NCBI GenBank assembly: GCA_018651725.1 | Contig: JABIDK010000001.1 | Location: 748 to 64,747 of the forward strand | Direction of reading: 5' to 3' | Origin: Candidatus Falkowbacteria bacterium | Lineage (GTDB): Bacteria > Patescibacteriota > Patescibacteriia > JAACEG01 | Length of the DNA stretch: 64,000 nucleotides | In this document: positions 368-31,618 of the stretch, in pieces | How the letters are laid out: each line of letters begins with the position of its first letter | How positions within the stretch are numbered: the stretch's first letter is position 1 | Notes under the pieces: generated by a model | The model's database searches: none | What the model was told of the DNA's origin: nothing | The model's input: only the letters and a program-made list of their open reading frames with translations | Made by a program: the position numbers and the translations under genes

Positions 368-694
368 ATGCCAAAGCATTTTATTAAATTAAAATCAGAG
401 AAAACTATTTGTGGAAACTGTAAAGAAGAGTTTACTGGCGGTGGTTATGTTAACCATTGTCCGCATTGTTTGTGGAGTAAGCATGTTGACGAGGATATTC
501 CGGGAGACCGAAAATCAACCTGTTTAGGCTTAATGAAGCCAATTAAAGTTATCACAGGTAAAAGAGAAAAAATATCGATAAAACACTATTGTCAAAAATG
601 CGGAAAAGAAATGTTAAATAAAATTTCCCCAAACGATAATATGGAGGAAATTATTAAACTGTCTACTAAACACGACAAGCATGGAAATATATAA
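368..694 (+). CDS. Small zinc-ribbon protein (CxxC...CPHC...CQKCG), hypothetical
   Basis: ORF with three Cys pairs typical of zinc-ribbon folds, an A-rich upstream region and a hairpin just 5' of it. No recognisable family. Confidence 0.5.
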   Translation: MPKHFIKLKSEKTICGNCKEEFTGGGYVNHCPHCLWSKHVDEDIPGDRKSTCLGLMKPIKVITGKREKISIKHYCQKCGKEMLNKISPNDNMEEIIKLSTKHDKHGNI

Positions 695-700
695 AAAAAT

Positions 701-1525: not shown

Positions 1526-2328
1526 TATAACAACTCCTAAAAAGAAAAAAAGCCCTTGAAGTGAATTGTTTATACAAAATTCACTTCAAGAGCCGGAGTT
1601 ATCGCCATCGGTTTCTTCTCCTTTTAAAAAGAGGAAAAAAAATAATCGCAAACAGAGGGATCGTGGCCCACAATGGGACGCGAATTATTTCAATAGGTTC
1701 GTTAGTCCCTGGAAGCATCTCCAAGGAACAGACGAGGGTAGAAATTACTGAAAAAGCTACTAAAAAAAATAAAAATTTTCCGTATTTTTTTTCTTTATTC
1801 ATTTTCTTCTCCTTTTAGAGCCTTTTCAAGACATTTATTGTAGTGGATTGTTGTACTGCTTAATTCAACCCATAAAACTACGTTACAAGACGGACAACAA
1901 AAGCCCTTACCGCTCTGCTTTATTTCAACTTCATTGAAGCTAGTTACAGTTGTATGGCCGCAGTTAGTGCACGTATATCTTATTTCTTTTTTTATTTCTC
2001 TCCCTCTTATATTTTTTAATAAAAAGAGCCTCCTTTTTTAATATAAAAATATACCATAAAATCAATTAAAAGTCAATAGCAGCCAAGAAAAAAACCGCTT
2101 GATTAAGCAGTTTTTTTGTATAAATTGGCAATTTTTATCAGATGTTTTTTCTTTTATACATCTACCTTGTAAATAGTTGACAATAAATTGTCAACTGTCA
2201 ACTAAATATTTTTATTAATATTTATTTTTAAAATCTAAAGTGTAAATAGACTTATTCATATCACTTTAAATTCGGCCAAACTAAAACCCGACCTTGTTTT
2301 ATGGCCGGGTTTTAGTTAAATTTTTAAA

Positions 2329-3393
2329 TTACAGAGCGTCAAGATCGGCTGCCTGACCCTGAATAACTTTTCCTTGTTTTAATTTTGGTATTTTTTGAAC
2401 ATCGATTACATCGGATGTAGCTCCTAATTTTTTCAACGCGGCATTAAACTTTTCTACCCACCCTAAAAACTCTGTTTCTGTTATAGAACCACTAAAATAC
2501 GCGTTAAATTCAGGCTTTATTACGGTCACCATATTATATTTATAGGCTTCCTCTGCTTGTTCGCCGGCTTTTGTTTTCATCGCTTTAATAAATTGCTCTT
2601 TGCCGTCAGAAGTAAAATATTTCGATACAATCAATTCTCCTTTTTCTTGTTCTGCTTTTTTAGAAATACCTTGATTTAAATCAACTTCTTCAGCCGACAT
2701 TTCTTCGTACACTTTACCTTTTTCGTCAGTAAATTGTTTGTATGTTCCTTGTTGCTTAGATTGCTCTCTTGTTTTGTCTTGAAGCAACCGAAAACGAATT
2801 TTTTTCTCAAATAATTCATAGGCTTTATCATATCTTCCTCCATAGACAGACATATTTGCCAGTTCTTTATCTGTAAACACGCCTTCTGCGCTCATTTCTG
2901 CTGCCCACCCTTTAAATAATTTTACATTTTCTTGTTGTTTTTTAGTAAATTTTTTATCTACTTGTTCGATCGCAGATGCTTCATTAACCGTAACGCCAAA
3001 TTCAGGAGTATAATTTCCAACACTTATTATCCCGGCGGCAAGTATAGCCGCTACCACTCTCGTGCATTTATTTTTTGCCATTTCACCAAGTTTTGTCATA
3101 AATTCTTTTGAATCATTTTTAATAGACTCTAGCAGATTAGGGTCAATTTCCTTTATTTCTTCTTGAGCGGTTTCCGGGGTTAAACTCTCATAAATTTTTA
3201 AAACTTCTTCTGGGTCAATTCCTAATTCTTGTTCAAAATAATCAAGTTGCCCCTCTATTCGCGTAGCTTCTTCCAGCTTTGCTTCTTTTTCTTCTACAGA
3301 GAGATCTGAGCTCTCGATTTCTTGATTAAGTTTTTCTAATTTATTGGTGCCTTGTTTTAATTCCTCTCCTGTCGCTAAAGTTTCAAATTTCAT
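2329..3393 (-). CDS. Hypothetical acidic coiled-coil protein
   Basis: Long ORF, Glu/Lys-rich, no recognisable motif. Co-directional with recA. Confidence 0.5.
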   Translation of the reverse strand: MKFETLATGEELKQGTNKLEKLNQEIESSDLSVEEKEAKLEEATRIEGQLDYFEQELGIDPEEVLKIYESLTPETAQEEIKEIDPNLLESIKNDSKEFMTKLGEMAKNKCTRVVAAILAAGIISVGNYTPEFGVTVNEASAIEQVDKKFTKKQQENVKLFKGWAAEMSAEGVFTDKELANMSVYGGRYDKAYELFEKKIRFRLLQDKTREQSKQQGTYKQFTDEKGKVYEEMSAEEVDLNQGISKKAEQEKGELIVSKYFTSDGKEQFIKAMKTKAGEQAEEAYKYNMVTVIKPEFNAYFSGSITETEFLGWVEKFNAALKKLGATSDVIDVQKIPKLKQGKVIQGQAADLDAL

Positions 3394-3445
3394 AAAGTTG
3401 ATATTAATGTTATTTTATTAATTATTTTAAACCTCTGAAGCCAAG

Positions 3446-3886
3446 CTAATCTTTTTTTTCCGGAGTAATACGCCCTTCTTTTTTAGCCTCACTTATTTTT
3501 AATCTATTTTCAATATCTTTCCATTCCGGAAGCTTAACGCCAGCTTTCTCAAGATCTTTCTGTAGTTCTTCGTCTGACTTGCTATTAAATTCAATGCAAA
3601 TATCAGTATCCTTTATTAGGTCTTCTAGTAATTTTTCCGGTGACATTTTGACTAACCTCTCTATTTTTTCAGTATCTTCTGTCATTTTACCTTCTGCTGG
3701 CTCATAAGCTATATACTCCCATAAAGTAATCTCATCTCCTAATTCTAAAACATCTTGTTGTTCTTTTGTTAGCATGCCCTGTTGAACTAACTCTGCAATA
3801 GTAGTACTTCTAGATAAAATAAACTTTTCTCTGTTGTTATCTGACTCTTTTTTGTTTATGTTTATTTGATCAAGTTTTTCTGTCAT
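3446..3886 (-). CDS. Hypothetical protein immediately downstream of recA, at the position where recX usually sits; identity unproven
   Basis: The 146-aa acidic ORF follows the recA stop by 29 bp. No clear RecX repeat signature is visible by eye. Confidence 0.4.
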   Translation of the reverse strand: MTEKLDQININKKESDNNREKFILSRSTTIAELVQQGMLTKEQQDVLELGDEITLWEYIAYEPAEGKMTEDTEKIERLVKMSPEKLLEDLIKDTDICIEFNSKSDEELQKDLEKAGVKLPEWKDIENRLKISEAKKEGRITPEKKD

Positions 3887-3914
3887 ATATTTTATATGTT
3901 AAAAAAATAATAAA

Positions 3915-4946
3915 TTACTTAGCATCCTCTTTCTCTTTCTCTCTTACCGTTTCCCAGACTTTTTTCTTTATTTCTTTGATGAATTTTGGATTTTCTCGCA
4001 GAGTTCTTTTGGCGTTTTCTCTACCGACTCCTAACTTTTCCTCACCGTAGGTATAGGAGTTGCCTGATTTTTTTATTATGTTAAATTCTACTCCTTTATC
4101 TAGGACGTCTCCGGAGATTGAGATTCCTTCGTTGTACATGATTTCAAAAACAGTATTTTTAAACGGAGCAGCTACTTTATTTTTTACTACCTTAGCTTTT
4201 ACTTGGTTGCCGATAATTTGGTCGCCTTTTTTAATTTGGGCGCTTCTTCTAACTTCAATTCTAACCGATGAATAAAACTTTAAAGCCATTCCGCCGGTAG
4301 TTGTTTCCGGGTTGCCGAAGAACACACCAATTTTTAAACGGATTTGATTGATAAAAATTAAAACAGTGTTGCTTTTGTTAATTACGCCGGTTAATTTTCG
4401 AAGCGCTTGGCTCATTAGCCTGGCTTGAGTTCCCATTTGCCTGTCACCCATTTCTCCTTCAATTTCTGACTTTGGTACAAGCGCGGCAACTGAATCAACC
4501 ACGATAACGTCAACGGCGTTAGAGCGAACCAACGTTTCGGTAATCTCAAGGGCTTGTTCACCATTATCTGGTTGAGAAATTAACAACTCTTTTACATTCA
4601 CGCCAATTTTTTTAGCATACTCCGGATCAAGCGCGTGTTCAGCATCCACAAACGCTGCTACGCCCCCTTGTTTTTGCACTTCAGCTACAATATGTTGCGC
4701 TAAAGTTGTTTTTCCGGAAGCCTCCGGGCCGTAAATTTCTATAATTCTCCCGCGCGGCACTCCACCTACGCCAAGAGCAATATCAAGAGAAAGACAACCT
4801 GTTGAAACAGCCGAAACCTTTGCTTTCTTAGCTTCCCCCAGCTTCATAATAGAACCATCCCCAAACCGTTCTTTAATTTGAGCTACAGCCTCTTCCGCTG
4901 CCTTTAATTTTTCCTGCCCCTCATCTTTTTTGTTTTTATCGGTCAT
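3915..4946 (-). CDS. recA: Recombinase RecA
   Basis: Walker [30 protein letters not shown], and L2-loop region [23 protein letters not shown]. Confidence 0.95.
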
Positions 4947-4971
4947 AAAATTTTGTTTAAATGATTAATAA

Positions 4972-5331
4972 TTAAATACTTTCCACTACCAGTACCTTTC
5001 TATAAACAGTATTTGTCTGGCTATATTTTTTACTGGCTTCTATTTTTATAATATTAACTCCCATTTGTAAGCCAATGGTTTCTGTAAAATCTCCGTTACT
5101 TTCTGCTAAAATGCCTTTGTCGTTAATATAAATTTTTGCTTCTTTACAAGAGCTCCCTTTAATAGTTATTGATTTTTCGTTGGTTGTAAAATTATTATTT
5201 GGTTCAAAAATTTCCAAGTTTGGCGGATTAAAAATTTCTTGAGCCTCCACGCCTAAATAAGTAAAACACAACAAAAATATTATAGCAATAAAAAGATTTT
5301 TTAAAATTTTTGGTGTAACGCTAAATTTCAT
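4972..5331 (-). CDS. Hypothetical secreted protein (N-terminal signal peptide)
   Basis: Hydrophobic N-terminus IFLLCFTYLGVEA followed by a polar domain. Confidence 0.5.
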   Translation of the reverse strand: MKFSVTPKILKNLFIAIIFLLCFTYLGVEAQEIFNPPNLEIFEPNNNFTTNEKSITIKGSSCKEAKIYINDKGILAESNGDFTETIGLQMGVNIIKIEASKKYSQTNTVYRKVLVVESI

Positions 5332-5345
5332 AGTATATGGTAAAA

Positions 5346-7547
5346 TTAATTTTCTTCTTCGTTATTATTCTCTTTTTCTTCGTCCAAACTTTCCTGCGAA
5401 ACCAAAACCTCTCTTGATTTGGCTCCGTCGGCCGGACCGATTATCCCGAGTTCTTCCAAGGCCTCAATAAGTCTGGCAGCTTTATTATAGCCGATTCTCA
5501 TCCTTCTTTGTAGTAGTGATGCTGAGGCTTTTCTGCCCCTAACAACAATTTCTTTGGCCATTTCAATTAACTCTTCATCTTCGCCAAAATCATCGTTTTT
5601 CCCTGAAATACTAACCCCTCCTTGGCGTTCAACAACTGTTTCATCGTACTCAACTGAATCGTAATTAAGTTTTATATAGCTGGTAATTTTTTTAATTTCA
5701 CTTTCAGAGACAAACGCTCCTTGTAATCTTTTTGGTTTTGAGGTCTCAGCAGAAACAAAAAGCATGTCTCCGCGACCTAACAATTTTTCCGCTCCACTAC
5801 TGTCTAAAATTGTTCGTGAATCTACCAGAGAAGCAACACTAAAAGCAATTCGTGAAGTAATATTAGCTTTAATAAGCCCGGTAATAACATTAACCGATGG
5901 ACGCTGAGTAGCCAAAATTAAATATATTCCAACCGCTCGTGACATTTGTGCCAAGCGAATAATCAAAGCTTCAATTTCCGGACCGGCTGAGGCCATTAAA
6001 TCCGCCAACTCATCGATAATTATGATAACACTTGGCATTGTATTGCCGGCGGCTCGGTAAGAAAAAATATCGCGATTTTTTGCATCAGATAAAACTTCAA
6101 ACCGACGTTCCATCTCAGAGACTGCCCACTTTAGCGCATTAACCGTTTCTTTAACTTTTGTAATGACTGGTGTTAAAAGATAAGGAGTTTTGCCATAAAT
6201 CGGAAGCTCAACTCTTTTCGGGTCGATCATTATAAACTTCAAATCATCAGGAGAATTTTGATACATTAAACTTAAAATAATAGTGTTAATACAAATTGTT
6301 TTTCCTGAACCAGTCGAACCGGCAATTAAAAGATGCGGATTTCTTGTAAGATCGGTCATCCAAGTTTTTCCGGAGACGTCTTTGCCTAAGGTAATCATTA
6401 AATCAGACGGTCTGTTTTTGAATTCGTCGGAGGTAATAATATCTTTCAAGCGAACCTTTGCGGCTTGTTTATTCGGCACTTCTACTCCTACTAAAGACTT
6501 GCCCGGGATAGGTGCTTCAATTCTTATCGGGTGAGCTGCCAAGGCAAGAGCTAGATCGTTACTTAGTGTAATTATCTGAGACAGCTTAACTCCTTCAGCT
6601 GGTCGTAGAGTGTGCTGGGTAACAGTTGGCCCAACGCTTACTTTCCCCATCTCTACTTCTATGTTAAAATTCTCCAAAGTTTTTCTGATAGTCTCCATAT
6701 TCGCGTTAATGTCTCCGCTAGTTGGCTTGTCTCCGCCGTTATGGAGAAGATCAAGCGGTAGGTCTATTTTCTTTTTCTTAGGTTTATGATTAAATTTAAT
6801 TTCCTCTTGCTCCCCCTCTAAATCTTCTTCGTTGCCGGATATCTCTGTTTTTACAAAATCAACCTCTTTATCGTTATCGTCCTCTTCAATAAATTCCTCT
6901 TCCTCTTCATTTTCGTGCTCTTTACCAAACTTTTTTTGCTGTCTATAGTTGTGGAATTTGTCTTTAGATTGAATTGCAACTTTTAACCCTTTAGAAAAAA
7001 TTATCTTTAAAATATTAAGCCCGCTCAACAGGTTATCTAGAGAAACGTTAAAAATAAGAAGAATTGATCCAATAAAAGCAGAAACAAATATCACCAAGCT
7101 TCCCCAAAACCCTAAAAAGTATCCAGCTGGGTAACCTAAAATAAGACCAATATAACCTCCGCCTTCACCAAAGGACACCTGCTTTAAACTGCCCGTGAAA
7201 CTTTGATTTAAATCTTGAGTTAAATGAAAAATTCCATAAAAACTTAAAACAAAAAAAACAAGTCCGACATAATGTAAACTTGTTAAAACTTTTTTTCGAG
7301 CACTTACAATAAAGTAGGTAACAGCTGAAAGTAAAAAAGGAAAAATAATATAACCAATTCCGAAAAACTGTTTCAAAACCTCTTCCAACCACAAACCAAA
7401 TCTTCCAGCCAAATGAAATAAACTTAAAAAAGAAAGAACAATAAAAGCAATTAAAACCACAATTATAATCCCTTTTTTCGCCTCACTACTGATTGAAAAT
7501 TTATCTTTTTTATTATAACTATACTTTTTTCGTTTTCTCATAAACAT
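5346..7547 (-). CDS. ftsK: DNA translocase FtsK/SpoIIIE
   Basis: N-terminal TM segments, an acidic linker, Walker A GSTGSGKT, and a C-terminal winged-helix gamma domain (LLQRRMRIGYNKAARLIEALEELGII). Confidence 0.9.
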   Translation of the reverse strand: MFMRKRKKYSYNKKDKFSISSEAKKGIIIVVLIAFIVLSFLSLFHLAGRFGLWLEEVLKQFFGIGYIIFPFLLSAVTYFIVSARKKVLTSLHYVGLVFFVLSFYGIFHLTQDLNQSFTGSLKQVSFGEGGGYIGLILGYPAGYFLGFWGSLVIFVSAFIGSILLIFNVSLDNLLSGLNILKIIFSKGLKVAIQSKDKFHNYRQQKKFGKEHENEEEEEFIEEDDNDKEVDFVKTEISGNEEDLEGEQEEIKFNHKPKKKKIDLPLDLLHNGGDKPTSGDINANMETIRKTLENFNIEVEMGKVSVGPTVTQHTLRPAEGVKLSQIITLSNDLALALAAHPIRIEAPIPGKSLVGVEVPNKQAAKVRLKDIITSDEFKNRPSDLMITLGKDVSGKTWMTDLTRNPHLLIAGSTGSGKTICINTIILSLMYQNSPDDLKFIMIDPKRVELPIYGKTPYLLTPVITKVKETVNALKWAVSEMERRFEVLSDAKNRDIFSYRAAGNTMPSVIIIIDELADLMASAGPEIEALIIRLAQMSRAVGIYLILATQRPSVNVITGLIKANITSRIAFSVASLVDSRTILDSSGAEKLLGRGDMLFVSAETSKPKRLQGAFVSESEIKKITSYIKLNYDSVEYDETVVERQGGVSISGKNDDFGEDEELIEMAKEIVVRGRKASASLLQRRMRIGYNKAARLIEALEELGIIGPADGAKSREVLVSQESLDEEKENNNEEEN

Positions 7548-7635
7548 AAAAACTTAACAATTTTAAAGTTGTCTATAACATTATTATACCAAACCAACAA
7601 ATAAAGACAAGAGTTTATTTTAAGCAACAAAAAAA

Positions 7636-7660
7636 CCCGGCAATTAAGCCGGGTTTTTTT
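7636..7660. terminator. Bidirectional rho-independent terminator after rpoC
   Basis: aaaaacccggcaattaagccgggttttttt: a GC stem flanked by an A-run and a T-run. Confidence 0.7.
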
Positions 7661-7679
7661 ATATATTTTTTGCTAAACT

Positions 7680-10600
7680 CTATTTCTTTTTAAACCCTGT
7701 TCCTGCGGGGATTAATCTACCGATGATTACGTTTTCTTTTAATCCATCGAGCGGGTCGATTTTTCCGCTGAGTGAAGCTTCGATTAGGATCTTTGAGGTT
7801 TCTTGGAAGGAGGCGGCTGATAAAAAGCTTTTTGTGGAAAGAGAGTTTTTTGTTATTCCCAACAATAGCTCCTCTCCTTTAGCTTTTGTTTTGCCTGCTT
7901 TTTCCATTTTTTTATTTTCATCTTCAAAATCTCGTCTATCGATAACAGTGCCTGGCAAAAAATTAGTGTCTCCATCGGACGTGATATTCACCTTAGAAAA
8001 CATTTGTCTGGCGATTACCTCAACATGCTTATCGTTTAATGGCTGACCCTGAGAAGAATAAAGGTATTGAATCTCATTGATAATATATCTTTGAGTTTTA
8101 GTTCGGCCTGCTAACGTATGAAGTTGTTGTAAGTTAAGACTTCCTTCTGTTAGTTGCTGACCTTTTTGAACTTTTTCTCCGTTTTTAACCCAGATGTCAA
8201 AGCCCTTAGCAACTGAAAACTCTTTTATTTTATTTACTGTTCTAAAAACAGCCACTTTGGTTGAAAGCACTCTGGCTTCACCAAACTCTTTTGCTTTAAC
8301 TTTAGTGCCGTTGCTTCTTATGAATAAAAGATCTCCTTTTTCAACCTTGTCCCCTTCTTTTACTTTTATTTCAAGTTCACCTTCTTTCTTTGAGTCGTCA
8401 ATTTTCTTTTTAGTAGCAGTTCTAAAATCATATTTGTCTTCATCTTCGCCGATATATTCCAACTTTAAAACTTTTTGCCCGGGAACATTTTCTAGAACAA
8501 TTTTTCCAGTCGCATCTTTAATAGTTCTTTCTAATTGCGCTATTTTAACAACCCCATCTTCTTCAGCTAAAACAGCTCTTCTCTTCGGGTTTCTGGCTTC
8601 AAAAAGTTCTTCAACTCTTGGCAGACCTTGGGTAATGTCGTCTCCAGCTACACCACCGGTATGAAAGGTTCTCATAGTAAGCTGAGTTCCTGGTTCACCG
8701 ATTGATTGAGCGGCCACCACCCCAACGGTTGCTCCTTTTTTAACAAGTTTGTTGTACCCCAAATCCCAACCATAGCATTTTTGGCAAACACCTTTTTGTG
8801 ATTTGCAGGTAAGAACAGAGCGAATTTTTAAATTCTCAAGATCCAGTTCTTTTAACTTATCTCTTTCCGCTTCTGTAATAATCTGACCTTTTTTAAGGAC
8901 AATTTCTTTTGTTTTAGGATCTTTTACTTCTTCAAACGACACTCTTCCTAAAACTCTGTCGGCTAAGTTGCTGCTTAGTCTTTCGCTATTTTCTTTTGTC
9001 AGTTGTATACCTTCCCTTGTTTTACAGTCTTCTTCTTGCACAAACATATCTTGAACAACATCAACTAAACGTCTGGTTAAATAACCGGCATTAGCTGTTC
9101 GTAAAGCTGTATCAGACAAACCTTTTCTGGATCCATGAGTAGAAATGAAAAACTCCAGCACATCAAACCCTTCTTTAAAGTTACCCTTTGCCGGAAGTTC
9201 AATAATATCTCCGGAAGGACTGCTTACCAAACCTTTCATTCCAATCACCTGAGTTAACTGCCCCCAATGTCCTTTAGCCTTAGAATCAATAATAGAGAAA
9301 ACAGAGCCTTTAGTATCTAGTGATTCTTTCGCTAAGGCAACGATTTTTTCTTTAGCAAAGGTCCAAGTTTCAATTATTTTGCTGTGACGTTCCGCATCGG
9401 TTAAAAGACCGGCATCGTATTGTTGTTTAATTTCTTGAACTTGTTTTTCAGTTACTTCCAATATTCCTTGTCGTTCATCAATAAAAGGCAAGTCTCCCAT
9501 TCCCCAAGAAAGTCCGGAGATAGTTAAATATTTAAACCCTGTTCTTTTTAAATCATCTACAAATTGCCCGGCTCGTTCCAGTCCATAGTTGCTTAAAATT
9601 GATTTAACTAAGCCTTTTAATGAACCAGCGTCCATTTTCTCATTAAGGTACTCCATATCTCTTGGTAATATCTTGTTAAACAAAACTCTACCAATAGTTG
9701 TTGTGACTATTTTTTTCCCAATCCTAACTTTAATAAAGTTTTTAAGCTTAATGTTCTTTAAGTCGTAGGCCAAGATTGCCTGATTTTCGTTAGCAAAAAC
9801 TTTTATTTTTTTATCGTCAACTTTTTCTTGAGAAGAGGAGGTTAAATAATAACATCCCCAAACAATATCTTGACTTGGGCTAACCACCGGGTCGCCTGTT
9901 GCCGGTTTTAATAGATTTTTACTTGATTGCATTAACTCTTTGGCTTCTTTTTGGGCTTCCTTTGTTAAAGGAACATGAACAGCCATTTGGTCTCCGTCAA
10001 AGTCAGCGTTAAAAGCGCTACAAACCATTGGATGAATTTGGATAGCTTTTCCTTCTATCAGGATTGGTTTAAACGCTTGAATTCCGAGTCTATGCAAGGT
10101 TGGAGCACGGTTTAAAAGCACATAAGCATCCGCAATAACTTCTTCTAAAATATCCCAAACTTCCACTCGCCCTTCGTTAATAAAACGAATAGCGCTTCTT
10201 ACATTATGGATAACTTCATCGCGAATAAGTTTGCTGATCACAAAAGGCTTAAAAAGTTCCAAAGCCATTTTTTTCGGCAAACCGCACTCATTGATCTTTA
10301 GATGAGGACCAATCACAATCACGCTTCTGCCTGAGTAATCAACTCTTTTTCCCAAAAGATTTTGTCTAAACCGACCTTGTTTCCCTTTCAAAATATCAGA
10401 GATTGATTTTAACATTCTTTTTTGTCCGGTTGAAGATACTACTGTTTTTCCGTGTCTGGCGTTGTTATCGATTAAGGCGTCAACTGCCTCCTGTAACATT
10501 CTTTTTTCATTTCTGGAGATAACTTCAGGAGCATTTAATTTTTTAAGTTGTTTTAACCTGTTGTTTCGATTAATAACTCTGCGATACAAATCATTAAGAT

Positions 10601-20398: not shown

Positions 20399-22162
20399 TT
20401 ATTTTTCAAAGTAATCTTCAATTACTTTTTCAGCTAAAAGTTTAAAGCGATCAAGCCCTGCTATAGCCTGTGGTTCATCCCGGTCAATGCGTCGCTCAGG
20501 AAATCCGATGTCTATATCTCCTGCCTTTTTGTCTATTCCCTGATCCTTTCTCCATTGCAAAAGCGCCCTGGTTGGATCCACTCCTTTATAATAAACAATT
20601 TTTGAAGGTTTTTTTGTTGGATTTTTCGCAAAATGTTCCTCCCAAAATTCTTTAGAATTTATCGTATCCTGCGCTTCTAAAAATAAAATACTTTTATCTT
20701 CCAATGCTTTATCTATACTTAAATCAACTGAATGACCTGGATACTTTATTCCTTTTTCTTCACTCTTTTTCTCTTGAGAAAAATATTGTGAATTATCAAG
20801 AATAGCGGATTGTAGTCGTTGATCAGATATGCCAAATTCTTGTTTTAATAGCTGACGAAACGGTTCCAATTTTTTTAATTTTAATGATGCCATGGCTTGC
20901 GCATCACCACCATATCGAGTAAGTTCCCAAAATACTTTCGAAAGTTGTTTTTCAAAATTATAAAAATCCGGTGAATCTACTACATGTCTAATTGCGTCTT
21001 GATAGTCAGAATTTTCAATCGGGTTGTTATTTTTATCAAGCTTATATCGCGACCCGGTTTTTTTGTCCACTTTTGCTTCTTCGGGAATAAAAATAATTCC
21101 GGCGTTTAAATCCATACCCCTTTCTTCATTTGCCCAAACCCATTGATCATTCCAATAATCACCACGACTCATCTCGTCTCCTAATTGACCGCTAAAATAA
21201 TATTGTGAGGCAACATGGGCAGAAGGATAAGTAATAAAAATCTCATTCCCCTTTTCAGATCCATAATATGTATCAGCGACTTCTTCTGTGGCAAAATGGA
21301 TAGCCGCCCTGTCTACATAAGTTCCAGGCTCTCCCTGTCTTCCAAACCCACCTTCTGTAGTTATGAAAGCAAGAGATTCTAAGGCTTCTTCTTTGTTTTT
21401 AAACATGTTAAGCTCAAGAAATTTTACAAGAGCTTGTTCCTTTTCGTTTTCAATTAGATAAACACCAAGAGGTGAACGCAATCTTCCGTCTTCAACCATT
21501 TTCATAAAACCGCCAAAGTAAGCGCCCTTACCTGCGGTATGATGCATATGTCCAACATGATCACGAATCCCCTGTCTTGTAACGTGGGTAACCATTTCGC
21601 GTGGAAATCTTTTAAGTAAAAGCGTGTAATCTTCAAGCGACAGCGAAGCTAAATTTTCCTCAGAAAAATATTTTATAATATCTTCTTTTGAATACTCGCT
21701 CCTTGCCCACTTTTCTTCTTGTTCTTTATAAAAATTATCCAGCATTGCCCTGACACCCTCTATTCCCGATGGCGTTTCTTGTGATTTCAACTTTTCAGAA
21801 ACTGTCTGTAATTCAGTAATCCCTTTATCTTGCTGTTGTTTTAATTTCTCGTACGTTCGCTGTCCAACGACGGCATCGGCTCGAACCTTTTTTAACTTAA
21901 AATAATTTAACAGCTCCTTAAATCCTGAATTGGAAAGCTCGGTAATTTCGCTTTCCAATTTGCGGATAGCTTCCAGTTTTTTATCCAAAGATTTTTCGCG
22001 TTCACCGGTAGTTTCTTGCAATTCAGAGCGTCTTTCCGTTTGAGCCCTTTTTTCGGTAAAGTGTTCTGCTCGCTTAGCCCTAATTGTCTGAGCAGTCTGT
22101 TGTCGTTCTTCCGGCGATTTTTCTTTAGAAAAGTCTCTTATAAATTTTGGTGTTTTATCCAT
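20399..22162 (-). CDS. Large hypothetical protein (587 aa), no recognisable domain
   Basis: Long uninterrupted ORF with a charged N-terminal coiled-coil-like region. Confidence 0.55.
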   Translation of the reverse strand: MDKTPKFIRDFSKEKSPEERQQTAQTIRAKRAEHFTEKRAQTERRSELQETTGEREKSLDKKLEAIRKLESEITELSNSGFKELLNYFKLKKVRADAVVGQRTYEKLKQQQDKGITELQTVSEKLKSQETPSGIEGVRAMLDNFYKEQEEKWARSEYSKEDIIKYFSEENLASLSLEDYTLLLKRFPREMVTHVTRQGIRDHVGHMHHTAGKGAYFGGFMKMVEDGRLRSPLGVYLIENEKEQALVKFLELNMFKNKEEALESLAFITTEGGFGRQGEPGTYVDRAAIHFATEEVADTYYGSEKGNEIFITYPSAHVASQYYFSGQLGDEMSRGDYWNDQWVWANEERGMDLNAGIIFIPEEAKVDKKTGSRYKLDKNNNPIENSDYQDAIRHVVDSPDFYNFEKQLSKVFWELTRYGGDAQAMASLKLKKLEPFRQLLKQEFGISDQRLQSAILDNSQYFSQEKKSEEKGIKYPGHSVDLSIDKALEDKSILFLEAQDTINSKEFWEEHFAKNPTKKPSKIVYYKGVDPTRALLQWRKDQGIDKKAGDIDIGFPERRIDRDEPQAIAGLDRFKLLAEKVIEDYFEK

Positions 22163-22259: not shown

Positions 22260-22550
22260 CTATCCATGGGCGGCAATAAGCACTTTATTGTTCCGGCCAT
22301 CATCATAAAATACCTTACGAGTTTTATGAACAACCGAATGAAAAACAACTAAATACGCCCATACGGCCATTGGACCGGTAAGTACAACCTCTTCAATGTT
22401 AATATCCATTGTGGCGATATTTCTGCCTACAATATTAACTGCTTCTTCCACCGGAGTAATTAGATTTAACCGTCCAGCCACTTCGGTAATCTCGCAACCA
22501 TTATATAGGTTAGTGTTTGTGAGACCGAGATTAATAGTCTTAACAACCAT
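22260..22550 (-). CDS. Hypothetical protein (96 aa), islet module A, distal gene
   Basis: ORF with GC and codon usage shifted from the flanking genes. No recognised family. Confidence 0.45.
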   Translation of the reverse strand: MVVKTINLGLTNTNLYNGCEITEVAGRLNLITPVEEAVNIVGRNIATMDINIEEVVLTGPMAVWAYLVVFHSVVHKTRKVFYDDGRNNKVLIAAHG

Positions 22551-22632: not shown

Positions 22633-23019
22633 CTATCTCCGCCATTTTCTCGCTACATCGTCAAGTTTACTCTGGAAATAGGCATCAGAGTGTTCGTGTC
22701 CGGTCATATCGGACACTTTGTCCTCTCTAATTGAAGCGTAATCCCCAACAGGAAGTTTGGACCCTACATTTTTTCTAGCTATCATGCAACTACCCATCCC
22801 ATTGGTATACCGCATGTACTCAACGGTAAAAGAGGTTTTTATAGTCTCAAAATTAACCCTGACTTTGATACTATTAATTTTGTTTATGTTCGCAAACTCG
22901 AACACAAACATTGCGATAGGCTTGAACTGGTGTAACATGCACCAACTATTATGGGCGTTAAAATTATTCTCTTCCCTCCATGGGAGGGTAGTTAAAAACT
23001 CCCTTAATTCTTTTTCCAT
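22633..23019 (-). CDS. Hypothetical protein (128 aa), islet module A, proximal gene
   Basis: A GGAGAGGAGG RBS precedes the ATG. Repeat R1 lies directly upstream. Confidence 0.45.
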   Translation of the reverse strand: MEKELREFLTTLPWREENNFNAHNSWCMLHQFKPIAMFVFEFANINKINSIKVRVNFETIKTSFTVEYMRYTNGMGSCMIARKNVGSKLPVGDYASIREDKVSDMTGHEHSDAYFQSKLDDVARKWRR

Positions 23020-23070: not shown

Positions 23071-23133
23071 TTAAAGAACTTTTACTTCCTCTAAGTCTAC
23101 TTCACCGATTGAAATAAACTTGGAAAAAGTGGG
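23071..23133. repeat. Direct repeat R1 (about 63 bp), an upstream/leader element
   Basis: ttaaagaacttttacttcctctaagtctacttcaccgattgaaataaacttggaaaaagtggg. Nearly identical to 24747-24805 apart from a 6-bp indel. Confidence 0.7.
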
Positions 23134-23722
23134 AATTTTTGAACTTATGGTATTCCCAAACCATATTGTAAACGCTAACGTGGTTTACTTGTAATAATTT
23201 TGACTTGAAATTATCACACCGTCGCTGTTTTCGCATAAAGCGGATTAGAATCGGTTTACTCATTCCCGATTCAGCGATGCTTGTTTATTTATATAGCGTA
23301 GCTGTACGGATTTCTCCTGCAAGCTCTGCGCTTGACGACAAGAAGTCTAGCCTCTTTTTCTCTTTCGAGAATAAGGATAATCTTCATCCTGAGAATAAAA
23401 ATCATCCCTGTCGTCGTTCTCTATCAGATTGCTATGTCTGCAATCTTTGCAGACATGCTTGTAGTGTATCTTTGTACGATACATGCAATCCCGAAGAGGG
23501 AATTGGCAATGGTCCTTTTTCCAAGTCATAACCACCTCCAAAGAGTTAACGCACTCTAAAATATCTCTTTATTCCCAAAATTTTAACCCGCGTCACCAAG
23601 TTTTATATTTGGTATTCAGAAACATCCTTTCGCGCCGACGTTTCATCAAGGTACAGCCGGAACCCGTTTTTGTTGAAGCGGGTGAAAACAAAAATTGCTT
23701 CCACCCGTAAATAACCTAGCTC

Positions 23723-24373
23723 TTACTTTTTATCAATAAGAGCTTCAAGAATTTTGCCCCAGTCTTTACCGTACTCAGCAAAATCCGTACCAGTCCCATC
23801 GCATCTCCAGCACTTATATTTTTCATCATCGCGTTTTATGCTGCCAGCCCCGCTACAGCCTGAACACTCACGCTCAGTGCCGTTTATGCCAACTGTTGAA
23901 ATACAGTTGGTAAATATAGCTTTTGCTCCATCAATTTGAAATTGATGATAATTCAAATTATCAAGCATGGCTGAGGTTGGATGGTGATGATGATTCATGT
24001 CTGTAGCAACGGCTACAAATTTAGCACCGCTCTTTGCGGCCTCTAACGCGAGCGCCCATCCTACGGGCATTACCTTGCCAACATGCCTCAAGCCTTCACC
24101 ACCTTGCGCCATTTTTCCTGCCGGCATAAGAAGATCGCACAGGACTGCGTCCCAAAAAGGGTCTGTTTCATTTTTGTTTAAGCCTGGCCAATTCGTGCCG
24201 TCAATCTCATGCTCCTCAGCCCTCCTTAGAAGCTCTTTTTCATAACCTCTTTTGCTTAAGAGATTATAAGCTTCGTCATGAGATGAACATGTTGTTAGCG
24301 CATGTTCGCCACCCAAAGTCTGCTCTGCCGCCTTAAGGTGCCTCTCGTTGTCATCAATTACTAAAATATTCAT
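23723..24373 (-). CDS. Receiver-like (CheY-like) domain fused to a DnaJ-type CxxCxGxG zinc-finger C-terminus
   Basis: N-terminus MNILVIDDNERHL...DAVLCDLLMP matches the receiver-domain acidic pocket and phospho-acceptor Asp context. C-terminus carries CSGCSGAG and CWRCDGTG repeats. 216 aa. Confidence 0.55.
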   Translation of the reverse strand: MNILVIDDNERHLKAAEQTLGGEHALTTCSSHDEAYNLLSKRGYEKELLRRAEEHEIDGTNWPGLNKNETDPFWDAVLCDLLMPAGKMAQGGEGLRHVGKVMPVGWALALEAAKSGAKFVAVATDMNHHHHPTSAMLDNLNYHQFQIDGAKAIFTNCISTVGINGTERECSGCSGAGSIKRDDEKYKCWRCDGTGTDFAEYGKDWGKILEALIDKK

Positions 24374-24530
24374 AACATTTCTCCAGCCCCTGAAATACCC
24401 CGAGGCACGGGTTAGCCACGATATGCAGCTTTTTTTGAATTGGCAGTGTCGGCTTGCCAGGCCCCCGGGAGCTGCCCCTGAGTATTACAAGTCCGGTTTA
24501 AAGTCATGGACGTGGACTGATCTGCAAACC

Positions 24531-24725
24531 CTATACCGGCTCAGGATCCGGATGTAACCAAATGTCACATTGATCGCAAATGTCATAACCTTCAGCTACT
24601 TGGTTGTGACATCCTTTGCTGGCGCAGATTACCGGAGTGATTGTTGCCAAAAACTCCGGATGTGCTTGTTGTTTTAGCACCGCCAATCGGCGACGCCTCC
24701 TCATGTTATTATCCTTATCGGACAT
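24531..24725 (-). CDS. Small Cys-containing protein (64 aa), islet module B, first gene
   Basis: CASKGCHNQ...CDQCD. Repeat R2 lies immediately upstream. Confidence 0.4.
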   Translation of the reverse strand: MSDKDNNMRRRRRLAVLKQQAHPEFLATITPVICASKGCHNQVAEGYDICDQCDIWLHPDPEPV

Positions 24726-24746
24726 GGCAACACCTCATTATTTAGT

Positions 24747-24805
24747 TTTAAAGAACTTCCTCTAAGTCTACTTCACCGATTGAAATAAACTTGGAAAAAG
24801 TGGGG
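24747..24805. repeat. Direct repeat R2 (about 59 bp), second copy of the upstream/leader element
   Basis: ttaaagaacttcctctaagtctacttcaccgattgaaataaacttggaaaaagtgggg. Confidence 0.7.
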
Positions 24806-24968
24806 AATGTTTATTGAGCCTCCCCCTTAGTTAAATAGTTTTTGTAATGAACATCTAATCTTTATTATTCTTACAATATCACAAAGCAAATAAACTGTCA
24901 GTAAAAATGTAAAAAATGTAAATTTTTATTAAAATTTATTTTATTACCTCGTTTTTTTAGCTTAAATA

Positions 24969-24996
24969 TTGACAAAATTGATATATATAGTATAAT
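24969..24996 (+). promoter_or_regulatory. Sigma70-like promoter for the TrmB-family regulator gene
   Basis: TTGACA, a 16-nt spacer, then TATAAT. Two TTGACAAAAT-like motifs sit at about 24969 and 25015. Confidence 0.55.
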
Positions 24997-25057
24997 ATAA
25001 AAAATGACCCTTCTGTCGACAAAATTAAAAAATACTAAATAATTAACAAAAAAATTT

Positions 25058-25786
25058 ATGCTATTAAAAACATTACAAAAAATCGGGCTTAATGAAAAAG
25101 AGGCCAAGGTTTATTTGGCCTCCCTGGAATTGGGCGAAACAAACATACAAAGGATCTCCAAAAAATCAGGGGTAAAAAGAACAACTGTTTACGATATATT
25201 GGAATCGTTAAAAAAAAGAGGGCTAATCAGCACCTTTAAAAAAAATAAAAAAATCTTTTACTATGCGGAATCGCCAAAATCCCTAGACAAAGACCTTGAT
25301 GAAAAAAAAGAATTATTAAAACAGGCCATGTCGGAGCTAATGTCAATTTCCAATCTCATAGATAAAAAGCCGAAGATTAGATACTTTGAACATGTCGAGG
25401 GAATAAAAGAAGTTTATTTGGACACATTAAACTATCCGGAACAAGAAATGGTTTCATGGATCGCTGAAGAAGCTTTTTATAATTTTGATGTTGATTTTTT
25501 AAATAGCTATTATCATCCCAAAAGATTAAAGAAAAAAATTTGGACAAGAGAAATCGCCTCTGATGATCCGGAAACTCAAAAATATAAAAGAGATGATGAA
25601 AAAAGCCTAAGAAACACAAAACTATTATCAGCAGAAGACTTCCCTTTGGATGTAAGTATAAACCTGTACGGAAAAAATAAAATCGGCATTATGTCGTTTG
25701 ACGAAGAAATAGGCATAATAATAGAAAGTGAAAAAATTTATGTTACATTGAAAAGTATGTTTGAATTTGCTTGGGGTAAATTATAA
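25058..25786 (+). CDS. TrmB-family transcriptional regulator (N-terminal wHTH), paralog 1
   Basis: GLNEKEAKVYLASLELGETNIQRISKKSGVKRTTVYDILESLKKRGLI is a TrmB-type wHTH. It is a paralog of 30869-31618. Confidence 0.7.
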   Translation: MLLKTLQKIGLNEKEAKVYLASLELGETNIQRISKKSGVKRTTVYDILESLKKRGLISTFKKNKKIFYYAESPKSLDKDLDEKKELLKQAMSELMSISNLIDKKPKIRYFEHVEGIKEVYLDTLNYPEQEMVSWIAEEAFYNFDVDFLNSYYHPKRLKKKIWTREIASDDPETQKYKRDDEKSLRNTKLLSAEDFPLDVSINLYGKNKIGIMSFDEEIGIIIESEKIYVTLKSMFEFAWGKL

Positions 25787-25878: not shown

Positions 25879-26139
25879 TTAATGAGCATACTTTGGTTCC
25901 GGAGGATTTTGTTTTCCGCACTTGGTGCAAATTTCAACTATTAAACCCTCGGTTCTTTTGATTGGTGCTTTGCAACACCGACTTTTTTCAATTATAAGCC
26001 CTCCAACTTGATGATACGGATTTGGCCCTGGACAAATATTTTTAAGTATTTTGCTTAAACATTTTTTACAAATACATGCCCTAATTTCGTCTTCCTCTAA
26101 ATCATTTTTGCATTGGCTACACATCCATCTTATCGACAT
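25879..26139 (-). CDS. Small Cys-rich (multi-CxxC) zinc-finger protein
   Basis: CSQCKN...CICKKC...CCKAP...CTKCG. Confidence 0.45.
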   Translation of the reverse strand: MSIRWMCSQCKNDLEEDEIRACICKKCLSKILKNICPGPNPYHQVGGLIIEKSRCCKAPIKRTEGLIVEICTKCGKQNPPEPKYAH

Positions 26140-26318: not shown

Positions 26319-26645
26319 TTAACGCAACTTAAAATGTTGCGTTCTTACTTTTTTGATCTCCATTTCCGGGTCGCAATTTATACATGCCCCGAGGAAAATT
26401 AACCGACCCTTTAAATGATTGCCGGAAAGCAAGGATTTGGCCGCCCTATGAATATTAGTGACCTTTTCGTACTCTTGTAAAAAATGCGTTGTCCCGCACT
26501 GGTCACAGATTACCCTACCCTGTTTTTTTACTTTTTTAACACATGAGGCACAAAGCCCCTCCCTTCTGTTGATTTCTAGAAAACATACCATACATTCGTA
26601 CGTTTTCCTTTTTACCGATATCGGTAATTGAAACAACTTTCCCAT
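26319..26645 (-). CDS. Small Cys-rich zinc-finger protein
   Basis: CMVCF...CASCV...CDQCG...CINCD. Confidence 0.45.
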   Translation of the reverse strand: MGKLFQLPISVKRKTYECMVCFLEINRREGLCASCVKKVKKQGRVICDQCGTTHFLQEYEKVTNIHRAAKSLLSGNHLKGRLIFLGACINCDPEMEIKKVRTQHFKLR

Positions 26646-29100: not shown

Positions 29101-30864
29101 TTAAAATTTCTGTTTTTCCCATAGTTTGTAAAACTTTCCTTTTCGCGCAATAAGCTCATCAAAAGTACCTACCTCTAAAACTTCGCCCTTATCCATAACT
29201 ACAATCCTATCCATTTCTTTGATGGTTGAAAGGCGATGGGCGACTACAATGACTGTAATATCTTGAAAAAAAGTATGCAGTGTTTCTTGAATTTTTTTCT
29301 CTGATTCAATATCTAAATGTGAAGTTGCTTCGTCAAGCAATAAAATTTCCGGTTCTCTGTAGATTGCCCTAGCAATTCCTACTCGTTGTTTTTCGCCACC
29401 GGAAAGTTTAATTCCCTTCTCGCCAACTAAAGATTTAACACCTTTTGGAAGTTTATAAGAAAAATCTTTTACATGAGCAATATCTAATGCTTTTTGTAAA
29501 AGTTTTTGATTTTTTCCTGTTTGTGAAAGGGTGATATTTTCTTCCAACGAAAGGTTAAAAAGCTCTGTTTCTTGTGGAACAACCGCGACTTTTTCCATAT
29601 AAGATGATCTTTTAATATCATGAAGCGAATTTTTGTCGAACATGATACTTCCTCCATAGTCATCGTACAATTTTAAAATTAATTTAAAAAGTGTTGATTT
29701 GCCGGTACCGGAAATTCCTACAATGCCGATTTTTTCTCCTTTTTTAATTTCTAAAGAAAAATTTTTCAGTACTTTTTGTCCGCGATATGAAAAATTAATA
29801 TTTTTAAGTGTTAATTTTTGCCAGTCTGGATTAAATAGTTTTGTTCCGGATTTTTCAACGGTTGGTTTTGTTCTTAAAATTTCTTTCATGCGAAACATAG
29901 CGATTTTGGCTGTCACAAACTCATTGTAGGTTGCGGCAAATTCGTAGGCTGATGCTTCTATTTTCCCAAAATACAAAATTACCATTGCTAAAATACCAAC
30001 TTCTAGGTTTCCTTGAAAAATTTGCCATAGTGTAAAGACAACAAGAACAATACGAAAAAACTCTTGATAAAGATTTAAAGATCCTTCTCGAATTCGAAAG
30101 TAAAAAATTCGTTTTTTTATTTTTTCTGATAATCGCTGACTTATTTTTACTAAGAATGGATAAATTTTTTCGCCAATTCTAAGAGACTTTACTATGGATA
30201 TGTTATTAATAGACTCAAAAGAGATCCCGCTAAAATTTTCCCATTCTAAATTGCAAATATGCGCCTGATCAACCGCTTTTTTTGTAAGATGATAAGAAAG
30301 AAGATAATAAGTAATAAAAAAGAGAATAAGCAGAACCGCAAAGAAAATGTTAAAAAAAGCAAGAATAATAACAATAGCGATCAAATTTATAGTCGATTTA
30401 ACAGCTGTGTTGATATACATTCTAATAATACGCTTCAAACTTTCTCCGCCTTGTAAAATTTTTTGCATTTTATTACCGGTATTTTCTTTTTCATGCCAAT
30501 CCATGTTGAGACTATAGAGATACCTGGTAGTATTTTTCCGAGCATCTATACCAATGTTTTCAGCTATTTGATAGATGTAATACTTACAAAGTTCATGAGT
30601 TATAAAATAATACAAGGCCACTACGGCAGTAGCACCAAGCAATTGCCAAACATAAAGAGTACTGTCCCCGCTTTGATAATTAGAAACAAAAGTAATAATT
30701 TCAGATAACACCCAGACAGGGAAAAGCCAAACAAGATCACTAGTTATTCTAATTATTGAACCAAGAAAAAACTTAGCTTTATACGGTTTTATAAAGCTCC
30801 AAACATCTTTTATAAGTTCGATGTTGGTATAATTTATGTGTTTTTTTAGATTTTTTTTAATCAT
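29101..30864 (-). CDS. ABC transporter, fused permease and ATPase (MsbA-like exporter)
   Basis: Six-TM N-terminal half, Walker A GISGTGKST, signature LSGGEKQRVGIARAI, Walker B ILLLDEATSHLD. Confidence 0.85.
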   Translation of the reverse strand: MIKKNLKKHINYTNIELIKDVWSFIKPYKAKFFLGSIIRITSDLVWLFPVWVLSEIITFVSNYQSGDSTLYVWQLLGATAVVALYYFITHELCKYYIYQIAENIGIDARKNTTRYLYSLNMDWHEKENTGNKMQKILQGGESLKRIIRMYINTAVKSTINLIAIVIILAFFNIFFAVLLILFFITYYLLSYHLTKKAVDQAHICNLEWENFSGISFESINNISIVKSLRIGEKIYPFLVKISQRLSEKIKKRIFYFRIREGSLNLYQEFFRIVLVVFTLWQIFQGNLEVGILAMVILYFGKIEASAYEFAATYNEFVTAKIAMFRMKEILRTKPTVEKSGTKLFNPDWQKLTLKNINFSYRGQKVLKNFSLEIKKGEKIGIVGISGTGKSTLFKLILKLYDDYGGSIMFDKNSLHDIKRSSYMEKVAVVPQETELFNLSLEENITLSQTGKNQKLLQKALDIAHVKDFSYKLPKGVKSLVGEKGIKLSGGEKQRVGIARAIYREPEILLLDEATSHLDIESEKKIQETLHTFFQDITVIVVAHRLSTIKEMDRIVVMDKGEVLEVGTFDELIARKGKFYKLWEKQKF

Positions 30865-30868
30865 ATTT

Positions 30869-31618
30869 TTATTTTTTTAATAAATCCCAAATTAAATAAA
30901 ACATAGACCTTTGACTTTGGGCAAGCTCCTTGCTTTCAATAACTATTGCCATCATTTCTTTTTTAAAAGAAAACATAGCGATTTTGTCACCCCAAATCAT
31001 TATTAAACTGTGATGATCATAGCTCTTTGGAGAAATCTTTACTTCTCTCAATTCTTGTCGCCCGATTTTCTTTCTTTCTTGCGCTTTTAGCGAATCTTTT
31101 AAAATCGTTTTTACAGGTATTTTTTTCTTAATTCTATTCTTTAAAAAATTCGGCCAGTAATTGCCTAAATTTGCAAAATGGTCTTCAGCCGAGCTAAAGC
31201 CCAAAATTTCTTTGGCTTCATTTAAAACTTGTGCTAAAACAATTTTCATACCATCTGTTCCCTCGTAGAAATAGATTCCGGGCTTAGTTTTGCTGACATT
31301 ATCTATTGATGCTAGCTTAGGCAAAATTTGCTCTAAAAGATTTTCTCTTTGTTTAATAATTATTTTTAACTCTTTCGGATTTACTGCTAAAAATCTTTTC
31401 TTCTTGCCCTCTGAAGCGGTTTTTATAATACCTTCTTTAATCATCTCGTCAATAACGTCATAAATAGTAGTACGCTTAACTTCGGATTTACGCGCTATTT
31501 CTTTAATGGAAGTTTTGCCCAATTCTAAACAGGCTAAATATATTTTAGCCTGTTTTTCATTTAAACCAACTTGTTGTAAAGCAGAAACAAGCATTCTCAC
31601 TGTATTAAAAGTCGACAT
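30869..31618 (-). CDS. TrmB-family transcriptional regulator, paralog 2
   Basis: GLNEKQAKIYLACLELGKTSIKEIARKSEVKRTTIYDVIDEMIKEGII, a TrmB-type wHTH. Confidence 0.7.
   Translation of the reverse strand: MSTFNTVRMLVSALQQVGLNEKQAKIYLACLELGKTSIKEIARKSEVKRTTIYDVIDEMIKEGIIKTASEGKKKRFLAVNPKELKIIIKQRENLLEQILPKLASIDNVSKTKPGIYFYEGTDGMKIVLAQVLNEAKEILGFSSAEDHFANLGNYWPNFLKNRIKKKIPVKTILKDSLKAQERKKIGRQELREVKISPKSYDHHSLIMIWGDKIAMFSFKKEMMAIVIESKELAQSQRSMFYLIWDLLKK

Follow-up and report, generated by a model that had tools for sequence, protein, structure and literature searches.

A divergent receiver protein with an embedded putative zinc knuckle

A stretch of 64,000 nucleotides from contig JABIDK010000001.1 of a Candidatus Falkowbacteria bacterium (hereafter the window) contains, at 23723-24373 on the minus strand, an open reading frame (ORF) whose 216-residue product is a divergent homologue of response regulator receiver (REC) domains, as judged from family-level sequence profiles and a predicted receiver fold. 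A putative zinc knuckle is inserted within this fold, ahead of its last helix, and the protein belongs to a large family seen only in Patescibacteria (the Candidate Phyla Radiation, CPR). The initial annotation had read the protein as a receiver-like domain fused to a DnaJ-type zinc finger. All the strings that it quoted (MNILVIDD, DAVLCDLLMP, CSGCSGAG and CWRCDGTG) are present in the ORF, and they are not chance motifs, as they are conserved across 94 homologue clusters. MNILVIDD holds D7 and D8, and DAVLCDLLMP holds D80. The ORF opens with an ATG start codon with GGAG 9 nt upstream, and its features are listed below.

23723-24373, minus strand: complete ORF, 216 aa plus stop; atypical REC protein with inserted zinc knuckle
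23906-24373, minus strand: receiver core, residues 1-156, strand 1 to strand 5 (from model secondary structure, alignment to classic receivers over residues 2-99, and PDB profile matches)
24350-24355, minus strand: acidic pair D7-D8, where strand 1 ends; pairs with CheY D12/D13 in the alignment
24152-24256, minus strand: variable, lower-confidence insert after helix 2, residues 40-74
24134-24136, minus strand: D80 of DLLMP, the candidate phospho-acceptor, where strand 3 ends; pairs with CheY D57 in the alignment
24059-24121, minus strand: family-specific extended loop between strand 3 and helix 3, residues 85-105 (AGKMAQGGEGLRHVGKVMPVG), with invariant G99 and G105
23978-24004, minus strand: T124 at the end of strand 4, followed by the family-specific DMNHHHHP loop
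23789-23866, minus strand: putative zinc knuckle CSGCSGAG...CWRCDGTG, two CxxCxGxG units and one predicted Cys4 centre, at the hairpin tip after strand 5
23843-23866, minus strand: CSGCSGAG, residues 170-177
23789-23812, minus strand: CWRCDGTG, residues 188-195
23726-23770, minus strand: GKDW motif and final helix 5, in all relatives with or without the finger

Receiver homology and predicted fold

The receiver assignment is made at the level of the family, because that is where the evidence comes from and the protein alone is nearly invisible to curated libraries. Searched by itself, it gave no Pfam Response_reg (PF00072) match even at E ≤ 1 and nothing meaningful in a single-sequence search of the PDB; across Pfam, NCBIfam, PHROGs, PADLOC and PDB it returned only weak zinc-finger matches. 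Eighteen of 37 aligned relatives matched PF00072 at E ≤ 0.01 (best E 2.5e-7), the best relative scoring 29.9 bits, just short of the Pfam gathering threshold of 30.2 bits.

When a profile of the family was compared with the PDB, the top matches were receiver domains (8pdc, CKI1, AHK4, RpfC and others), and the alignments paired the DD and the Asp of DLLMP with the acidic pair and the phospho-Asp. An hhalign comparison with CheY, Spo0F, PhoB, NtrC and OmpR gave a probability of 96.6% (E 5e-10) over residues 2-99, pairing D7/D8 with CheY D12/D13, D80 with D57 and P84 with P61; for the finger-less relatives the values were 97.8% and E 7e-13. These alignments uphold the earlier reading of the N-terminal part as a receiver with an acidic pocket and an acceptor Asp.

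Structure prediction pointed the same way. The AlphaFold (AF2) model of the protein (predicted local distance difference test, pLDDT, 91.2; predicted template modelling score, pTM, 0.86) shows alternating strands and helices, and the top 16 Foldseek matches to it in the PDB were receivers (CKI1, NtrC1, PhoP and others). A finger-less relative of 156 aa, P0086, was modelled with a pLDDT of 92.3, and its 50 best PDB matches were all receivers, with a probability of 1.00, alignments covering the whole protein and a target-normalised TM of up to 0.74. The predicted structure is the (beta-alpha)5 flavodoxin-like fold of PF00072, and the Asp residues fall in register, the two points on which the initial annotation had suggested that its receiver reading be checked. 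Two further pocket residues are located from the models. T124 lies directly after predicted strand 4 (residues 119-123), a placement taken from model secondary structure, not from sequence alignment. The end of strand 5 (AKAIFTN) carries no Lys; a near-invariant K203 instead precedes helix 5, past the hairpin and finger, and judged from topology it should sit on the pocket face.

Conservation of the pocket and of family-specific loops

We counted conservation over the 94 homologue clusters. The classic receiver positions are retained almost without exception: D7 in 91/91, D8 in 88/91, D80 in 93/94, Thr or Ser at position 124 in 94/94 and K203 in 90/92. D75 is conserved in 92/94. K203 is part of a nearly invariant G-K-D-W motif directly before helix 5, in which W205 is conserved in 92/93.

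Three traits specific to the family are conserved like these classic residues, namely the extended loop between strand 3 and helix 3, a set of histidines, and the hairpin after strand 5. Within the loop, G99 and G105 are each found in 94/94 clusters. The histidines are H12 (83/92) and, in the loop between strand 4 and helix 4, H128 (92/94), H129 (93/94) and H131 (92/94), which together with P132 (at least 92/94) form an HHxHP motif; D125 and N127 are conserved just as strongly. According to the models, the loop, the His set and the hairpin should all lie at the C-terminal strand ends, which is the active-site face.

The putative zinc knuckle is an insertion

The Cys motifs do not form the C-terminus of the protein. 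The last 15 residues (GKDWGKILEALIDKK) correspond to helix 5 and align with the C-termini of the Cys-free relatives P0059, P0061, P0062 and P0083-P0092. Because helix 5 is thus conserved in relatives without any cysteines, we conclude that the finger is an insertion and not a C-terminal fusion. The models agree: in the short form P0086 a two-stranded hairpin separates strand 5 from helix 5, and in the window protein the tip of this hairpin, between strands 160-162 and 201-203, carries the Cys motifs. The sequences flanking the insertion are conserved in the short forms. Of the pairing that had been put forward, Cys motifs of the DnaJ cysteine-rich or anti-TRAP kind are therefore present, whereas their position as a C-terminal fusion is not borne out.

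The finger is also optional. Counting CxxC motifs after HHxHP in 94 members gave none in 23, two in 60 and four in 5, so that about a quarter of the relatives lack it, and some members carry much larger Cys arrays. Where the finger is present its cysteines are well conserved (C170 in 72/75, C173 in 70/74 and C188 in 70/70).

With its paired CxxCxGxG motifs the knuckle resembles both anti-TRAP (RtpA, PF15777) and the DnaJ cysteine-rich domain (PF00684). Scores for the window protein lie far under the cut-offs (DnaJ_CXXCXGXG, 15.3 bits against 32.7; NCBIfam RtpA NF058604, E 7.8e-4 and 19.5 bits against 65); among 37 relatives, seven matched DnaJ_CXXCXGXG (best E 1.5e-5) and eight matched Anti-TRAP (best E 9.3e-5). 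The modelled knuckle superposes on small phage DnaJ-like or CR-type proteins in BFVD with a root mean square deviation of 0.9-1.8 Å over 33-42 residues. A DnaJ cysteine-rich domain has four repeats and two zinc centres and belongs to a J-domain protein, whereas there are two repeats here and no J-domain. The number and spacing of the motifs fit anti-TRAP/RtpA (~53 aa, one zinc centre), the likeness being confined to the knuckle module. By analogy with anti-TRAP, the two motifs should form a single Cys4 centre, in contrast to the two centres of DnaJ, and would bind zinc there. In anti-TRAP, a small knuckle module of this sort serves to bind and inhibit the regulatory protein TRAP. The module described here differs from both in being embedded in another domain, and we found no evidence of trimerisation or of chaperone partners.

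The combination appears to be undescribed, as the initial annotation had supposed: we found it in none of Pfam, NCBIfam, PHROGs and PADLOC, and the literature that we searched held nothing on REC with CxxCxGxG motifs, nor on Patescibacteria TrmB proteins with response regulators.

A large family seen only in Patescibacteria

The 94 homologue clusters came from a search of 5.8 billion proteins. Most derive from metagenome-assembled genomes (MAGs) of Patescibacteria, and those members that have a name at all currently go under 'CheY-like chemotaxis protein', 'response regulator' or 'hypothetical'. One member, from Candidatus Falkowbacteria, shares at least 90% identity with the window protein. 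An exhaustive HMMER profile search of 1.84 billion representatives returned 1311 clusters at E ≤ 1e-3, of which 957 reached E ≤ 1e-10 and 298 reached E ≤ 1e-30 (clustering at 50% identity). Since ordinary receivers did not flood this search, the family is sharply distinct from them. All 52 loci from GTDB species representatives resemble Patescibacteria MAGs, and we take the few loci labelled as other phyla to be mislabelled. A metagenome scan with the single protein added only 8 loci.

No homologues were found in 50,697 phage and 72,556 plasmid records, and an origin from mobile elements was rejected on these grounds. The best PHROG match of the protein is of unknown function (E 2.4e-4).

No linked kinase, but a recurrent TrmB-family neighbour

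Neither a histidine kinase nor a canonical receiver is encoded in the 64-kb window. The 819 kb flanking the family genes at 52 other loci contained only three kinases, none of them within 5 kb of a family gene, and no chemotaxis genes were found near a family gene. The orphan histidine kinase that the initial annotation had suggested looking for is thus missing from the neighbourhood. The lowest kinase frequencies reported are those of CPR bacteria (PMC10805038).

The recurrent neighbour is instead a transcriptional regulator on the opposite strand, separated from the receiver operon by a shared intergenic region.

25058-25786, plus strand: divergently transcribed TrmB-family winged-helix regulator (Pfam TrmB, E 1.3e-18)
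24726-25057, no strand assigned: AT-rich (24% GC) divergent promoter region that separates TrmB from the REC operon; sigma-70-like sites occur on each strand

Directly upstream of the family gene, a divergent TrmB gene is present in the window and at loci L002, L004, L005, L008, L071 and L074 of other genomes. Over the GTDB species loci this arrangement occurs in 12 of 52, and the same count was obtained among the 23 loci with a score of 145 bits or more for which upstream sequence exists; judged from how densely TrmB paralogues occur at these loci, about one case would be expected by chance (binomial P ~2e-10). Adjacent TrmB genes also tend to resemble one another: their best match outside the locus was another REC-adjacent TrmB in 13 of 19 cases, compared with 12 of 36 for non-adjacent TrmB genes.

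Several observations concern TrmB genes and the intergenic region. A perfect sigma-70 consensus promoter (TTGACA, 16 nt, TATAAT) lies within 24969-25043 and faces the TrmB gene, and in the window, L002 and L010 similar TGTCG-N7-8-GGTC boxes, which may be an operator, are found close to where TrmB starts. The composition of the adjacent TrmB gene is ordinary, with a GC content at third codon positions (GC3) of 0.31. A second TrmB paralogue (30869-31618, minus strand), 37% identical to the first, stands beside an ABC-transporter-like gene (29101-30864). At L030, seven TrmB paralogues are found at 572-10449 of a single CPR contig; with so many paralogues there, the TrmB family must be strongly expanded in these genomes.

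Proposed mechanism and alternatives

The best explanation, in which our confidence and our doubt are about evenly balanced, is that the protein is an orphan but still active receiver that signals through protein contacts as part of a split response regulator linked to TrmB. The stand-alone, heavily remodelled receiver keeps its acidic pocket in the form of D7, D8, D80, T124 and probably K203. Because the receiver fold and this pocket are retained, it would be expected to bind Mg2+ and to accept a phosphoryl group on D80. As no cognate histidine kinase is linked to it, the phospho-donor would most likely be a small molecule such as acetyl phosphate, or else an unlinked or non-canonical donor, and the 20-residue loop between strand 3 and helix 3, the H12/HHxHP cluster and the hairpin, all of which should line the pocket face, would probably tune the specificity for donor or metal. 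The Cys4 knuckle on the hairpin is predicted to adjoin the face formed by helix 4, strand 5 and helix 5, the usual output surface of receivers, and may serve as a phosphorylation-sensitive docking module. Its most likely docking target would be the divergent TrmB-family regulator next door, and the pair could then act as a split response regulator for the shared promoter region and probably for other genes too.

A number of observations weigh against this explanation. The protein by itself has no Response_reg match in Pfam, and homology to receivers at the sequence level spans strand 1 to strand 3 only, the remainder resting on structure prediction. K203 lies 12-47 residues beyond the end of strand 5, unlike the usual receiver Lys, and the strongly conserved histidines are not explained by ordinary receiver chemistry. 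On the TrmB side, only about half of the closer relatives (12/23) have the neighbour and short forms rarely do, TrmB paralogues are abundant in any case (two for the window, and seven in a 10-kb stretch of L030), and none of the longer family members that we inspected is a TrmB-REC fusion. The divergent regulator may also simply control the REC gene and not bind its product.

The histidines lie at the heart of a second explanation, according to which the receiver scaffold has become a metal-binding or catalytic site. The acidic pocket, along with H12, H128, H129, H131 and D125, would coordinate a transition metal or else catalyse phosphoryl transfer or hydrolysis on a substrate, possibly with an intradomain His-Asp relay; the protein would then be a sensor or enzyme whose expression TrmB merely regulates. 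The four histidines, D125 and N127 are conserved like the classic residues and, by secondary structure, lie in pocket-facing loops. The sharp distinctness of the family, whose profile search gave 1311 clusters without ordinary receivers, and the lack of linked kinases fit this explanation as well. Furthermore, homologues of the eukaryote-type 14-kDa phosphohistidine phosphatase PHPT1 (Janus/Ocnus, PF05005) stand beside family genes at two unrelated CPR loci: one in the slot between TrmB and REC at L002 (7525-7845, plus strand; Pfam E 3e-10, and E 1e-3 to human PHPT1, 2ai6), the other directly after the family gene at L049 (3077-3598, plus strand). The conserved histidines and these two neighbours give the remodelled-site explanation real weight. 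Conversely, no similarity to known enzyme families was found in Pfam, NCBIfam or PDB, the structural neighbours are all signalling receivers, and a PHPT1-like neighbour occurs at only 2 of ~70 loci. We therefore regard it as possible, though the less probable course. A version that joins both ideas would make the protein a self-sufficient module, in which a His cluster gained over the acidic pocket allows phosphoryl groups or a metal to be taken up without a kinase, an intradomain His-to-Asp relay is possibly reset by PHPT1-like phosphatases, and the output passes through the knuckle to TrmB; this we consider improbable.

The initial annotation had also raised the possibility of a decoy receiver. 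Such a pseudo-receiver would bind its partners as an adaptor through the receiver fold and zinc knuckle, independently of phosphorylation. The absence of a linked kinase, the scores under the Pfam thresholds and the remodelled C-terminal half would all suit it, and it would share with KaiA (N-domain), FrzS and the plant pseudo-response regulators (PRRs) a divergent receiver fold working without a cognate kinase. However, these known pseudo-receivers typically lose the acidic phospho-acceptor pocket. Here the pocket is almost invariant, 94-100% of 94 divergent clusters having retained DD, D, T/S and K, and this indicates selection on it. Since these residues are retained nearly without exception, we think a decoy quite unlikely.

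The phosphorylation-controlled zinc-finger chaperone or holdase of the initial annotation, suggested by the likeness of the CxxCxGxG motifs to the DnaJ cysteine-rich domain, has next to nothing to recommend it, as there are two motifs and one predicted zinc centre, as in anti-TRAP, against DnaJ's four motifs, neither a J-domain nor a DnaJ C-terminal substrate-binding domain, a DnaJ_CXXCXGXG score less than half of the cut-off, a finger that a quarter of the family dispenses with, and a separate full-length DnaJ in a relative's genome (for example L074, 6893-7996).

Relation to known systems

The protein shares with receivers of the CheY/Spo0F type the predicted fold, the acidic pair, the acceptor Asp in D-x-x-M-P and the Thr that ends strand 4, and like them it has a single domain and must work by contacting other proteins. 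It differs in that the similarity ends past strand 3, in the added loop, the H12/HHxHP residues, the hairpin with its knuckle and the displaced Lys, and in having no kinase or chemotaxis genes nearby.

Parallels exist in archaea. In Thaumarchaeota, REC-only genes are divergent from ArsR-type helix-turn-helix (HTH) genes, and protein-protein signalling has been proposed for them (Galperin et al. 2018, PMC5847659); archaeal REC domains are also fused to a Cys-rich TackOD1 domain (PMC5847659). Both features recur here, as a receiver with a Cys-rich, presumably zinc-binding output and as a receiver-only gene divergent from a winged-helix regulator. However, those systems belong to TACK archaea and not to Patescibacteria, their Cys domain is a different one that is appended rather than inserted, and the regulator is of the ArsR and not the TrmB family.

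What is new is a lineage-specific receiver variant with an embedded output module and an added His site, whereas the kind of system is a known one. Patescibacteria account for much of bacterial diversity and have tiny genomes with very few two-component kinases. A receiver-derived family of at least 1300 clusters that preserves the phospho-pocket offers a concrete candidate for a signalling route specific to this lineage. It is unusual for a response regulator to be built by insertion, with the output module inside the receiver fold instead of in an appended domain, and the family merits its own profile in domain databases. Its interest would grow considerably if kinase-independent phospho-chemistry or metal chemistry were true.

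The upstream region and other neighbours

Upstream of the receiver gene lie a small ORF and two kinds of leader sequence, one of which has a second copy elsewhere in the window.

24374-24440, minus strand: conserved leader (~60 nt) directly before the REC start codon, with CCTCGGG..GGGG..GGAG at 24381-24405; shared with five other independent loci
24531-24725, minus strand: 64-aa Cys4 ORF, species-specific, in a variable slot between the promoter and the REC gene
24755-24811, minus strand: duplicated 57-nt leader, copy 1, ahead of the 64-aa ORF and receiver unit
23084-23140, minus strand: duplicated 57-nt leader, second copy, preceding the 128-aa/96-aa/587-aa unit

The initial annotation had placed the receiver gene in a transcript with the 64-aa zinc-finger ORF behind a duplicated leader. 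The duplication is real: the two 57-nt copies form a direct repeat that is 95% identical with a 49-nt exact core, where 0 matches are expected by chance. Co-transcription is plausible from the sequence, because no terminator-like site separates the 64-aa ORF from the REC gene. A conserved partnership, however, was rejected, as searches with the 64-aa ORF found only identical copies; the slot between TrmB and REC is occupied by unrelated small ORFs in other genomes.

The leader directly before the start codon was also found at L002 (~7935-8000), L010 (~9935-10000), L011/L072 (~9935-10000), L062 (~1700-1766) and L073 (~3935-4000), and the receiver proteins of the six leader-bearing loci are only 51-57% identical. 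Its pattern, CCTCGGG N2-10 GGGG N1-5 GGAG, has a single occurrence in each locus and likewise in the 64-kb window as a whole (0 expected). A short hairpin precedes the pattern, with a stem whose sequence varies by locus while complementarity is kept. RNAalifold supported a CCUC/GGGG stem with one covarying pair, from too few sequences for a real test. A structured RNA spanning the whole 157-nt GC-rich spacer was rejected, its fold energy being no better than that of shuffled sequences (z = -0.05), and the window contains no Rfam matches or tRNAs. This spacer (24374-24530) has 53.5% GC compared with 34% for the genome, and GC3 in the segment 22600-24800 is 0.40-0.46, compared with ~0.28 in the rest of the window. 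A GTTCTTT-R-A-W-A box is seen upstream of the receiver gene in L002, L010, L011, L062, L063, L065 and L073. Because the 3' end of the 57-nt repeat (GTTCTTTAAAA) resembles this box, the repeat may be the 5' half of the family's usual leader.

Clustering of neighbours within ±4 kb of the family genes recovered only TrmB, artefactual antisense shadow ORFs and a ~120-aa family associated with finger-less forms. Members of the latter lie on the same strand directly upstream of finger-less receivers, often overlapping them, at no fewer than 14 loci (for example L006 5654-6004, L043 9631-9990 and 10459-10827, and L010 11870-12253), and are fused to the receiver in L070 (5086-5892) and L049 (2010-3056). 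No homology of the ~120-aa family to REC or to PDB entries could be detected, and the 64-kb window lacks it. Both arrangements, the finger-bearing form and the pair of ~120-aa and finger-less genes, are found within 1.5 kb of each other in L010 and L070.

Behind the second leader copy, the 587-aa (20399-22162) and 128-aa (22633-23019) neighbours belong to no recognisable family. The C-terminal half of the 96-aa ORF (22260-22550, minus strand) in the same unit resembles Csx3/Crn3 ring nucleases (PADLOC E 8.8e-7; weak in Pfam and NCBIfam). Four small Cys-rich, zinc-ribbon-like ORFs of 64-108 aa surround the receiver gene, all on the minus strand (23347-23541, 24531-24725, 25879-26139 and 26319-26645). 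The first of these has a TTG start and is uncalled in the public contig, and the last nearly reaches the Pfam DZR_2 cut-off.

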